Position numbers: made by a program. From an uncultured Gemmatimonadales bacterium (GTDB lineage: Bacteria > Gemmatimonadota > Gemmatimonadetes > Longimicrobiales > Gaopeijiaceae), in contig CAWELD010000003.1 in the NCBI GenBank assembly GCA_963809895.1, positions 3,360,001 to 3,424,000 on the forward strand: 64,000 nucleotides of DNA, read 5' to 3'. Below are positions 42,001 through 45,000 of this stretch, one piece after another (the first letter of the stretch is position 1; the number at the start of each line of letters is the position of its first letter).

Positions 42001-45000
42001 ACCTGGTTCGCCACCCGGTCTGGCGAGAAGTCCTCGAAGCTCTCGAAGTTCAGATCCACGCCCAGCTTGCCACCGTCGTCGGACAGCTTGTTGTCGACGG
42101 AGAAGGTGAGGCGAGGATTCGAAGCCTTGAGGACCTTGTTGAAGTTGTCCGGATTGATCTCGGTGAATTCCCGATCTCTCACCTCCGGCAGCTCGCCGTC
42201 GCCGCTCAGGTCCGCCAGGACCCCCATGATGAACGGCAACTCCTTCTTGACGATGGCATCGCCGACCTCGACGTCGTACGAGATGTTGACCCTCGTCGGC
42301 CGCTGTCGATTGCGCCTTTTCTGGAAACTCTCCGCCATGTTTCGGCTCCTGCGCGGGTGGGCCCGGGCGAGTGGGCGACTGCGCGACCTGTCCGCCTTGC
42401 GCGACGGTCCCGAGGAACAGGCCGGCCAAGAGTTGACAACTACATCGGCTCGCGGACGTCTGTCAAGCAGATCGACCGGTCGGCGGCCGTCGCGACCGGC
42501 CCGTGGCGAGCCGCGGCTTCGCGACGCTCAACCTGCACTCCACCATGCCGATAGCGGGGCTCCACCCACCTGCGTGGAGAAGAGCGTCGGCACGCGCAGC
42601 CGCGCCTCCTGCCTGTAGCCTGCCAGGGGGACGACGCCACGGTTGGCGATGCGGCGCAAGGCGTCGGCGTTCCAGACCGCTTCCACCGGGTGGGCCAGTA
42701 CCCTCCCGGCGGCGCCCACGTGGATCGGCAGGCCCGAGAGGTCGTGCGGCGCCGGTGACAAGGACCAGCCCCGCTCGAGAAAGGAGCGCGCCAGCGCCGC
42801 CGCCGCCGGGAACGCCGGGTTGCCCCACAGGTAGGCGTCGCCGGCCGCGACCTCCGCTTCCTCCACCGGAAAGGTCTCGCAGGGATCCGTGTCTTCGCCG
42901 TAGGGGAGCCGCACCAGGTATCGCGGTGCCACAAGTCCCACGGACGCCGCGGCCTCGGTCCGGCGGAAGGCGTCCCAGGCCGGCGTGTCGGGCTCGGGCC
43001 AATCGTAGTCGGCCGGAGGATCGGCCCAGCCCGCGAGTCCCAGCAAGCCGGCGCCGGCGCCGGCCAGCAGGGGGATCCCCGAGGCGTGTGCCAGCATGGC
43101 CAGGCGGTTGAGGAGAGCGACGTCTCGCGCCTCGCCACCGAACGCCTCCGCCAGCACCACCAGCGCCGGGGCACCCTCCCCAGGGCCCGGAAGCGGCTCC
43201 AGGAGCGCCCGCGCCAGGCGACTTCGCTCCAACGAGCCCGCATCGGGCCCGCCCACGTCGGCTGCGAGCTCCGCCCGCGACACGTCCAGCACGTAGCATC
43301 TGACCTCGGGCCACTCCACGCCGGCCAGCAGGAAGAGGAGCGAGCGCCAGAGCGCCTCGAGATCGCGCACCGCCGGCGCGTGCAGCACCTCGACGATCCT
43401 GCGGGCCGCCTCTCGCTCGAGGCGGGCGCGCAACTCCGACTGTGCGTCGCTCTCGTCGGGCACGCGGTGCTCCTCCACCACGTCGCGAACCCAGGCGCTC
43501 AGGTCACCCAGGGGCCCCGAGTCGGGCGGTGCCTCTACCCGGGGCGTCGCCTCCACGATGTCGTCGAGCAGGCTCTCCGAAGCGGCGGGGGCGTCGGCCG
43601 GCTCCCCGTCGTCGTCACCGCTCGGTCCGGCGCTGCCGCCGCGGCTGGCCGCGGTCTCGGCGGGCCCCGCGGCCGCTCCCTCCAGGGCAGAGGTGATGGA
43701 TGCGCGCAGGCTCTGCAACTGCGGCACGCGCTTCACCAGACGGTCCGGTCGGAAATCCGCGATCTCGCCGACGTCGAAGGTCACGGGGCCCGACCCGTCC
43801 AGCTGGAACTCCACCCGGGGCCGCAACTCGCCCAACAGCTCGTCGGGGTCGGTCACAGCCAGCACGCGGCGCTGGTCCAGGGGCGGAGCCGAGGGGCCGT
43901 CCCGGTGTCCGCGCCCGGAGAAGTCGCCCACCACCAGGATCCGGAACGGAGGCGTCTCGGCCGACTCCACGGGGCCTGTCGTACGGCCCGGGTTCGTGGA
44001 GAGGGCGATGCGAACGCGGTCGGAGTCCGGGTCCATGGCTGCTTCCGGGAGGGGAGCGTCGCGGGGCCGGACACAGGCTGGCCGAGGCCGGCGGCGGATG
44101 CTATAGGTCAGAGGTGGTCGCGCGGGCCACTCTCAGCCCATGGTAGGAGATCATGAGACAGACGCAAGGCGTCCTGTGGACCAAGGGCGTGCTCCTGAAT
44201 CCCCAGCACCTGCAGCTGCAGGACCGGTACCTGGAAGACAAGCTGGCCTTCCACGTGTCGAGCCTGTCCTTCTGTCCGTGGGGATTCCTGGACTACGACA
44301 TCGACGCCGACGCGCTGTCGGGTGGCCAGTTCCGGCTCTCGCGGGCCTCCGGGCTCATGCCCGACGGGCTCGTCTTCGACATCCCCGCGGCCGACGGGCC
44401 GCCGCCGCCCCGCGACGTGGACGAGCACTGGAAGCCGGACCAGACCCGAATGGCCATCTATCTGGCCATCCCCGAGCTGGTCGACGGGGGCCGCAACGTG
44501 GGGTCGGAGGCCGGAGACACCAGCGCGCGCTTCTCACCCGAGATCCTGTCGGTGCGCGATGAGAACACCGGCCGCGCCGAGAAGGACATCCTCGTCGCCC
44601 GCAAGAACTTCCGCATTCTGTTCGAGAACGAGGCGATGGAGGGCTCCACCCTCATGCAGGTCGCGCGTCTCGTACGGACGCCTGCCGGTGAGACCACGCT
44701 GGACACGACCTACGTTCCCGAGATCCTGGACATCTCGGCCAGCGACCACCTCATGAGCATCACCCGCCGGCTCGTGGAGATCCTCACGGCCAAGGCCACC
44801 GAGTTGGGCGGCATCCGGCGCCAGCGCGGCCAGGTCGCCGACTTCGGCCGGCTCGACATCGCCCACTTCTGGCTGCTCTACACGGTCAACAGCCACCTGC
44901 CCGTCTTCCGCCACCTGCTGGCCGAGACGGGGCGGCCCCGGGCGGCCGGCGGGCCCGGTCCTCGCCGGGCGCATCCGGTGGAGCTCTTCCGCGCCATGGC

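Follow-up and report, generated by a model that had tools for sequence, protein, structure and literature searches.

A fused TssB-TssC-like sheath paralogue lacking Domain 1 in the T6SS gene cluster of an uncultured Gemmatimonadales bacterium

Sheath assembly, length control and recycling in the T6SS are today explained, for a few model Proteobacteria, by TssA, TagA, TagJ and ClpV, and TssC's N-terminal helix is the ClpV-binding element in the systems studied. Extra sheath paralogues of eCIS serve at particular positions along the sheath, and PapH, the chain-terminating subunit of chaperone-usher pili, donates a strand to the previous subunit and accepts none, so that the polymer ends. PMC5813253 and PMC5807055 give the polarity of strand exchange in the T6SS sheath: each subunit hands strands to the baseplate side, and its Domain 1 takes up those of the next ring.

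The window analysed here is a stretch of 64,000 nucleotides from an uncultured Gemmatimonadales bacterium (contig CAWELD010000003.1, positions 3,360,001 to 3,424,000), and all coordinates are counted from its first letter. An ORF of 502 aa with an ATG start and a GC3 of 0.88 (42528..44036, minus strand) encodes a fused sheath paralogue, referred to as FUS, and heads the tssB gene row of a T6SS cluster. Canonical tssB (41826..42338, minus strand; Pfam VipA, E 1e-53) lies 189 nt downstream on the same strand, and canonical tssC (40343..41839, minus strand; Pfam VipB and VipB_2) is the only other VipB-type gene in the genome. The cluster also contains tssE (gp25-like; 36715..37281, minus strand; PF04965, E 3.5e-19), which probably starts downstream of 37178, a TssA with Pfam ImpA_N and VasJ domains, and clpV (31036..33834, minus strand; Pfam AAA_2, AAA_lid_9 and ClpB_D2-small), the presumed reader of a helix in FUS described below. 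A tssK gene (44153..45556, plus strand) diverges from FUS across a 116-nt gap, an arrangement also seen in relatives. A promoter and terminator scan of 42200-44300 found neither. The idea that FUS goes with the second tssK was rejected, as genomes with a separate FUS hold 1-3 TssK matches and syntenic clusters without FUS retain both tssK genes.

Pfam placed VipA on residues 6-110 of FUS (E 4.6e-9; profile positions 7-113 of 155), passing the gathering score (36.7 vs 24), and VipB (PF05943) on residues 204-472 (E 7e-34), while VipB_2 (PF18945) was not found on the protein by the same search. By BLASTP, residues 154-494 aligned with residues 20-374 of the neighbouring TssC (29% identity, E 9e-33), the alignment stopping at TssC residue 374 of 498, and residues 30-110 aligned with residues 35-119 of the neighbouring TssB (E 2e-4). 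Scores on the NCBIfam models were far below the cut-offs for both TssC (TIGR03355, 122.4 bits, cut-off 271.5) and TssB (TIGR03358, 36.2, cut-off 97.25). Canonical TssB is a separate protein of ~170 aa, whereas the VipA domain in FUS is fused; FUS is one chain joining a TssB-like N-terminal part to a TssC-like part, without sheath Domain 1 (VipB_2). Annotators should note that FUS-type genes are not functional TssC equivalents; current database labels for the family read merely 'sheath large subunit' or 'sheath domain-containing protein'.

The AF2 model of FUS, built on a 72-row alignment (pLDDT 86, pTM 0.83), has a TssC-like fold. Its nine best Foldseek PDB matches were T6SS TssC/VipB chains, headed by 5n8n_B (6e-18), after which came eCIS, pyocin and phage sheaths. 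Model residues 195-502 superpose on TssC1 residues 64-400 of 5n8n_B with Z 31 (VIA-align), and the single-chain sheaths of phage, pyocin and eCIS align over model residues 14/28-502, their C-terminal handshake domain being without a counterpart in FUS; for pyocin, for example, the model runs out near residue ~290 of a 383-residue chain. FUS reproduces the TssB/TssC protomer in its middle and outer layers (Domains 2 and 3), without the inner strand-accepting 'handshake' Domain 1 and the C-terminal donor strand of TssC.

The TssB-like part, residues 1-133 (43638..44036, minus strand), consists of an arm, two Domain-2 strands and a Domain-3 helix, as delimited by Pfam, BLASTP and AF2 with domain definitions taken from PMC5807055. 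An N-terminal alternating-hydrophobic segment, residues 7-14 (43995..44018, minus strand), occupies the position where TssB has its donor strand (beta1 arm), the VipA match starting from residue 6 at hmm position 7. This alternating pattern was found in 60 of 69 family members, compared with 2 of 72 in a linker control; residues 1-14 have pLDDT <50, so the arm is of low confidence in the model. The arm is conserved only as a pattern and could be an inherited relic. The genome-wide survey's note had counted the last ~40 residues of TssB as missing; to correct this, the stretch corresponds to the tail that PMC5807055 describes as unresolved in the solved TssB1C1 sheath, and the TssB Domain-3 helix is apparently retained as model helix 105-122.

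Residues 134-176 (43509..43637, minus strand) form a low-confidence linker (pLDDT 51-55) with a column entropy of ~3 bits outside a conserved helix, residues 154-163 (43548..43577, minus strand), where conservation peaks within the otherwise variable segment. BLASTP and NCBIfam indicate that this helix is homologous to the N-terminal, ClpV-binding helix of TssC: it aligns with TssC residues 20-29, and the NCBIfam TssC model aligns from model position 4 at FUS residue 156. Positions 157, 160 and 161 carry one of LIVMF in 71/72, 67/72 and 71/72 family members, respectively, and the helix resembles the published N-terminal helix peptide of EAEC TssC2 (PMC5048182). In all 34 readable genome pairs, which were judged by eye and are not independent of each other, the helix type of FUS was that of the resident TssC, including 3 of the rarer type. 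Co-descent with T6SS subtypes, instead of a common partner, may lie behind this agreement, and covariation among close relatives is uninformative, since the TssC helix hardly varies there. The linker is followed by TssC-like Domains 2 and 3, residues 177-490 (42567..43508, minus strand), defined by Pfam, BLASTP and structural alignment, and then, in place of Domain 1, by a short C-terminal tail (42531..42566, minus strand) recognised from the alignments, with a conserved Trp motif that occurs within the last 14 residues in 58 of 72 members and in FUS itself.

FUS is not a local accident. Among its 100 homologues, 88 carried both PF05591 and PF05943 and 4 carried PF18945; all 72 aligned members scanned as VipA+VipB and none as VipB_2, although these rows had been picked for that architecture and for length. 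The same domain set was found in 24 of the 30 nearest Atlas clusters, so that no fewer than 24 clusters with 50 or more members each carry it. In the tree, a branch with SH-aLRT 100 set all 42 FUS rows apart, in one clade separate from canonical TssC. Together with the domain and BLASTP matches above, this bears out the earlier claim of a conserved single-chain TssB-TssC paralogue, and the claimed absence of the TssC C-terminus agrees with both the lack of VipB_2 and the end of the TssC alignment. Members come from Gemmatimonadota, Acidobacteriota, Planctomycetota and Pseudomonadota, among other phyla, with frames intact across several of them, and cultured carriers of a FUS-type gene are Massilia sp. 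Root418, Pseudoduganella sp. LjRoot289 and Marinibactrum halimedae NBRC 110095. Longer fused forms were represented by one 1006-aa protein only, whose extra 600 aa gave Pfam matches below the gathering cut-offs only (E 0.01-0.03) and no Rosetta-stone hint. Our literature search found no paper describing the fused VipA-VipB family of ~500 aa, and the family is unnamed.

The FUS family is under purifying selection, with dN/dS of 0.06-0.40 (median 0.20) in 12 pairs, compared with 0.03-0.16 (median 0.08) for TssC in 7 of the same pairs. According to the tree, FUS evolves ~6x faster than TssC, with end branches of 0.5-2 vs 0.01-0.3. Syntenic T6SS clusters of the same lineage were found in four states, containing FUS, FUS and a methyltransferase, the methyltransferase only, or an empty slot, and four syntenic clusters were without FUS. 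Of 201 genomes sampled from the phylum, 17 had a VipB-type match, and a FUS-type match was present in 5 of these. Because FUS evolves fast and is often absent, the T6SS machine does not need it, and FUS is an accessory T6SS gene.

T6SS core genes were present in the flanks of 23 of 45 GTDB loci, and the flanks of the remaining 22 contained no T6SS gene; T6SS genes were found at 12 of the 15 metagenome loci that extend >=5 kb to either side, and in one lineage a FUS-type gene adjoins clpV and vgrG. ORF clustering of the 45 fused-type loci gave no conserved neighbour of orphan copies beyond close relatives, and the genes adjoining FUS in 11 scanned orphan loci were housekeeping genes with nothing common between loci. 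Orphan copies are truly separate from sheath genes, but canonical TssC (VipB_2) was detected elsewhere in 23 of 25 tested genomes in which FUS lies apart from tssC. Neither VipB_2 nor TssF was detected in two FUS-bearing MAGs, which may be incomplete.

A donor arm, the lack of Domain 1 and the polarity of strand exchange together imply that FUS could donate a strand and never accept one. Loss of Domain 1 should make FUS non-propagating, and the corresponding proposal in the survey's note is retained as this expected effect. Our preferred reading, which we hold tentatively and which draws on sequence and the predicted model, is that FUS may be a low-copy, chain-ending sheath mimic, recognisable to ClpV and acting at free Domain-1 sites. 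FUS would dock at most as a donor on such a site, whether the site belongs to the growing distal end or to unassembled TssBC, and no further subunit could join onto it. With its helix on a flexible linker, FUS would stay open to recognition by the recycling ATPase ClpV at all times. FUS would then limit or mark sheath growth, neither building nor starting the sheath. A narrower version, in which FUS is a donor-only terminator that caps the growing distal end with a protomer-derived subunit or blocks free protomers, its always-exposed ClpV helix priming disassembly of the capped structure, is possible but doubtful. Domain 1 normally receives two strands, and a single donor strand may not hold a subunit at the sheath end; the loss of Domain 1 also removes the inner-layer position beside the tube. 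Both points speak against the chain-ending reading, as do the low-confidence arm, the two MAGs in which VipB_2 and TssF were not detected, and the dispensability of FUS.

The same helix would serve a soluble regulator or decoy that never enters the sheath, with the exposed helix binding the ClpV N-domain and tuning ClpV availability, or with FUS itself as a ClpV substrate. Such a protein would be consistent with the helix being the most sharply conserved part of a variable, low-confidence linker, with its homology to the TssC N-terminus, with its match in type to the resident TssC and, in one lineage, with the place of the gene beside clpV and vgrG, but the retention of complete Domains 2 and 3 and of the arm pattern would be left unexplained, and we consider this sequence-based alternative rather unlikely. 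Less probable again is an adaptor or starter on the baseplate side, with Domains 2 and 3 packed round the Domain-1-like TssE as a pseudo-ring below sheath ring 1, or with the arm in the TssE acceptor site. TssE is described in PMC5813253 as a Domain 1 homologue that accepts the linkers of the first ring. The divergent position next to tssK, here and in relatives, would suit this adaptor, as would the extra sheath paralogues used by eCIS baseplates, which are among the structural matches of FUS. An arm bound in TssE would however compete with ring 1, the gene is elsewhere beside vgrG and clpV or alone, and the second tssK is kept with or without FUS. Of the earlier suggestion that FUS starts or caps the sheath, the end or cap (or a block of free protomers) fits the strand polarity and the start fits poorly, and a starter ring is less likely than the chain-ending mimic.

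Reuse of the sheath fold outside the T6SS would account for the 22 GTDB loci without T6SS genes in their flanks, the unshared housekeeping neighbours of the 11 scanned loci and the two MAGs lacking detectable VipB_2 and TssF. We regard it as very improbable: canonical TssC is present in 23 of the 25 tested genomes, the helix type follows the resident TssC, and FUS heads the tssB gene row here. That FUS is a decaying duplicate without function is hardly credible, even though its long end branches (0.5-2 vs 0.01-0.3 for TssC) and frequent absence would be expected of one, as reading frames stay unbroken in several phyla, dN/dS lies well under 1, and motifs outside the shared fold are conserved.

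If the narrower, donor-only terminator is the true role, FUS would represent a novel class of accessory protein in the T6SS, and sheath length and turnover in environmental phyla would be controlled in a new way. In any case, this widespread third sheath-type protein is a testable candidate regulator built from the sheath protomer itself. Known factors acting on sheath growth and end include TssA and TagA (TsmA), accessory or semi-core proteins according to PMC13584744 and PMC5813253, and these have no sequence or fold relation to FUS. PapH follows the same donor-only logic as that proposed for FUS, which, given the unrelated fold and system, would be a functional analogy alone. Closer in fold are the extra sheath paralogues of eCIS (Afp and Pvc chains in PDB 6rao, 6j0n and 9qgl), additional sheath-like proteins beside the main one, which match FUS at Z 18-19; the FUS model is exhausted within the first ~260-310 of their 349-393 residues, and unlike FUS they lie outside the T6SS and lack a ClpV helix. 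The closest system is the canonical TssB/TssC protomer (VipA/VipB, HsiB1/HsiC1; PDB 5n8n, 3j9g, 5urw), which has in common with FUS the fold of Domains 2 and 3 (Z 27-31), the TssB-type N-terminal arm region, the TssC-type N-terminal helix and the gene cluster. Whereas the canonical protomer is made of two chains, FUS is a single chain without Domain 1 (VipB_2) and without the C-terminal donor strand, belongs to a separate and faster clade, and is dispensable.

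The gene for the fused TssB-TssC sheath paralogue (FUS) lies at 42528-44036 on the minus strand, starts with ATG and encodes 502 aa, with a GC3 of 0.88, similar to that of the surrounding genes, in a window with a GC content of about 0.70. A Pfam scan placed T6SS_VipA on residues 6-110 (E 4.6e-9, profile positions 7-113 of 155) and VipB on residues 204-472 (E 7.2e-34, profile positions 5-284 of 301), and did not find VipB_2. By BLASTP, residues 30-110 aligned with residues 35-119 of the window's TssB (E 2e-4), and the match to the window's TssC reported in the genome-wide survey's note was obtained with the same values (29% identity, FUS 154-494 to TssC 20-374, E 9e-33). 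FUS did not reach the NCBIfam equivalog cut-off of either TssC (122 vs 271.5) or TssB (36 vs 97.25), and together with tssC it makes up the only two VipB-type genes of the source genome (5.33 Mb, 11 contigs).

FUS is the last of a minus-strand series comprising a PAAR-like Tox-GHH2 protein (24809-26077), DUF2169 (26077-28329), DUF6484 (28370-28870), vgrG (28881-30992), clpV (31036-33834), tssG (about 33844-34854), tssF (34851-36680), tssE (36715-37281, PF04965 E 3.5e-19), tssA (37178-39325), hcp (39807-40292), canonical tssC (40343-41839, VipB and VipB_2 by Pfam) and canonical tssB (41826-42338). The last of these is 189 nt downstream of FUS on the same strand and is followed by tssC. The plus strand carries tssK (44153-45556), an adjoining second tssK (46711-48204) that is a full-length paralogue (PF05936 E 2e-114; TIGR03353 330 bits), tssL (48218-48940) and tssM (48980-52393). 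The core set is complete except for a recognisable tssJ, which was not found in the window's cluster, and FUS is therefore an extra gene.

Several other features of the cluster were observed. It is flanked by a PP2C phosphatase (21523-22611), upstream of the effector genes, and, after tssM, by a pair of Ser/Thr kinases, of which one carries Big_2 domains, and an FHA-trypsin protein (56361-59411, 59640-61430 and 61454-62863), an arrangement suggesting that threonine phosphorylation exerts control; a FUS copy apart from sheath genes (locus L010) adjoins a similar Big_2 kinase. The effector module downstream of vgrG (24449-28870) holds the DUF6484, DUF2169 and PAAR-like genes, the last with a Tox-GHH2 nuclease domain, and a small ORF on the opposite strand, and in the 24-26 kb region GC falls to 0.62. 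The two tssK genes have between them, on the strand opposite to theirs, a 391-aa ORF (45609-46784, minus strand) that belongs to no known family and is kept in place in relatives, with E down to 3e-43 in L003 and further cases in L004-6, L009, L025-27, L032, L038, L091 and L095-97. A second ORF outside known families, encoding 170 aa (39373-39885, plus strand), lies between hcp and tssA on the strand opposite to theirs, overlaps the 3' end of hcp and is likewise conserved in relatives, with E 1e-29 to 1e-8; the real gene is either this one or a weaker minus-strand ORF at 39332-39952.

The accessory status of FUS is seen at the level of both phylum and cluster. In a phylum sample of 201 genomes, 17 had a VipB-type match, of which 5 were FUS-type (G000, G130, G043, G069 and G139), 1 was ambiguous and 11 were TssC-type only. 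Syntenic clusters share the order tssM-tssL-tssK2-unknown-tssK, a slot, and tssB-tssC-hcp-tssA-E-F-G, and the slot holds FUS alone (the window, L095-L097), FUS with an MTS-type methyltransferase of about 500 aa (L009, L014, L019, L020, L026, L027, L032, L038), the methyltransferase alone (L091, L093) or nothing (L092, L094). Thus, the same machine exists with and without FUS. The methyltransferase (SAM, PF05175, weak DUF7059; L026 11539-13065, L014 7725-9197, L091 10471-11988, L093 10159-11679) had no orthologue found in the window's genome, where only a weak domain match occurs elsewhere. A tie between the second tssK and FUS was rejected, since syntenic relatives retain both tssK genes regardless of FUS.

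Among 100 FUS homologues, 88 carry PF05591 and PF05943 on about 500 aa and 4 are canonical TssC with PF18945, and of the 30 clusters closest to it in the ESM Atlas (at least 50 members each) 24 have the FUS domain set under generic 'sheath' names. All 72 aligned members, picked for this architecture, have VipA and VipB, and none has VipB_2. A tree of the TssC-like region was built from 95 rows (42 FUS, 17 FUS-adjacent TssC and 36 other TssC), excluding fused loci L003, L004, L035 and L078, whose aligned region was short. In this unrooted quick search, which gave long-branch warnings, a branch supported by SH-aLRT 100 had all FUS rows on the same side, and FUS-adjacent TssCs formed one group (support 85) separate from the other 35 (99). 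FUS end branches were long, with a path of 1.25 between the window's FUS and that of L005 vs 0.21 for their TssCs. That FUS is a decaying copy is one rival explanation, an unlikely one; dN/dS of FUS in 12 close pairs was 0.06-0.40 (median 0.20), and 0.03-0.16 (median 0.08) for TssC in the 7 pairs having it, with ORFs delimited stop to stop and frame breaks in the L005/L006 pair.

Another rival is that FUS is used outside T6SS. Of 80 GTDB loci, 35 were canonical and 45 fused-type (43 by phmmer, with L047 and L062 assigned from the tree). tssB and tssC lie alongside FUS in 14 of the 45, and L003 additionally has tssB at a contig end. A T6SS core gene was present in the flanks of 23 and absent from those of the remaining 22, several of which are on short contigs; in 11 scanned loci without a T6SS gene in the flanks the neighbours were housekeeping genes. 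ORF clustering over all 45 found no neighbour common to FUS loci beyond close relatives. When genomes having a FUS locus without tssC were searched, 23/25 had a VipB_2-bearing TssC elsewhere. The exceptions, G212 (holding L012) and G222 (holding L078), are MAGs, sized 4.8 and 2.7 Mb, whose completeness is unstated and in which TssF was also not found; either they are incomplete, or they represent rare FUS without T6SS. Two full-length tandem tssC genes, each with VipB_2, were seen in G004 C38, G005 C85, G007 C12, G008 C38 and G221 C14, and at L053 and L072.

Three elements are kept by the family. The first is an arm at the place of the TssB donor strand, an alternating hydrophobic triple in the first ~20 residues, ahead of the first core strand, in 60 of 69 members (three with almost no N-terminus excluded), compared to 2/72 for the same pattern in an equal-length linker segment; the Pfam VipA match takes in this region. 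The second is a linker helix, which aligned with TssC residues 20-29 by BLASTP, also matches the opening positions of the NCBIfam TssC model, and is similar to the EAEC TssC2 N-terminal helix peptide (PMC5048182). Its positions 157, 160 and 161 have entropies of 1.2-1.7 bits, vs about 3 bits in linker columns, and are LIVMF in 71/72, 67/72 and 71/72 members, while 158 is D or E in 54/72. The helix occurs in two types, and by eye FUS matched the resident TssC in 31/31 readable common-type pairs and 3/3 of the rarer type (L008, L037, L133), excluding L006, L009 and L029 as unreadable and leaving second TssC copies uncounted. This shows long association and common constraint, and falls short of proving a common partner because the pairs are related. 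A query with the other helix type (13 members) gave 79 metagenome loci, 26 with a T6SS gene, which was present in 12 of the 15 having 5 kb or more on each side. In that lineage (L122-L188) FUS is usually divergent from vgrG and near clpV, often adjoining clpV and tssG, unlike its placement in the window. The third element is a Trp motif in a short tail, which closes the chain where Domain 1 (VipB_2) would start; it occurs in 58/72 members.

The AF2 model of FUS (72-row alignment; pLDDT 86, pTM 0.83) had low confidence at residues 1-25 and 121-180 (10-residue block means 51-71), with a short helix at 154-161 within this linker. Superposed on TssC1 64-400 by VIA-align, residues 195-502 gave Z 31.1 and rmsd 2.9 over 303 residues. 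In PMC5807055, the solved P. aeruginosa sheath is described with an inner-layer Domain 1, in which two TssC strands take one donor from the neighbouring TssC C-terminus and one from the TssB N-terminus; a Domain 2 formed by a mixed TssB/TssC sheet; and a Domain 3 helical bundle including the TssC N-terminal helix, the target of ClpV. FUS thus corresponds to Domains 2 and 3 on a single chain without Domain 1.

Because it keeps the arm and lacks both Domain 1 and the TssC C-terminal strand, FUS could act as a donor only. It could dock on Domain-1 sites that are free, whether at the distal end or on TssBC not yet assembled, and further addition onto docked FUS would be impossible. The genome-wide survey's note had read it as a ring starting or capping the sheath; the capping part suits the donor-only make-up, and FUS fits an end cap, terminator or polymerisation brake more readily than a starter. 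With its helix permanently tethered, FUS could presumably always be seen by ClpV; a rival explanation makes FUS a soluble ClpV regulator, and another a TssE-side adaptor. The donor-only, docking and ending steps are what we infer, while architecture, conservation, selection and genomic association are established. A full-text search, whose reach stopped short of subscription journals and supplements, turned up no publication describing a sheath paralogue that is naturally fused or lacks the handshake domain. A review from 2026 covering accessory factors of T6SS (PMC13584744) does not use 'sheath-like' or 'paralog', and the 12 of its 15 passages on TssB, TssC and fusion that were covered name no such protein. 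The FUS family is thus real and widespread, an accessory form of the T6SS sheath protomer that has gone unstudied and whose mechanism given here is a proposed one.

Among known structures, the best nine Foldseek PDB matches of the model were all T6SS TssC/VipB chains (5n8n_B at 6e-18, and 5urw, 5urx, 3j9g, 5myu, 5ojq, 5mxn, 9n4v and 3j9o), and below them came the sheaths of eCIS, pyocins and phages, at 1e-4 or weaker. With these single-chain sheaths the alignment starts at model residue 14-30, so the TssB-like part is covered too, but their C-terminal part has no counterpart in FUS, as in the pyocin sheath, which aligned at 8-290 of 383.
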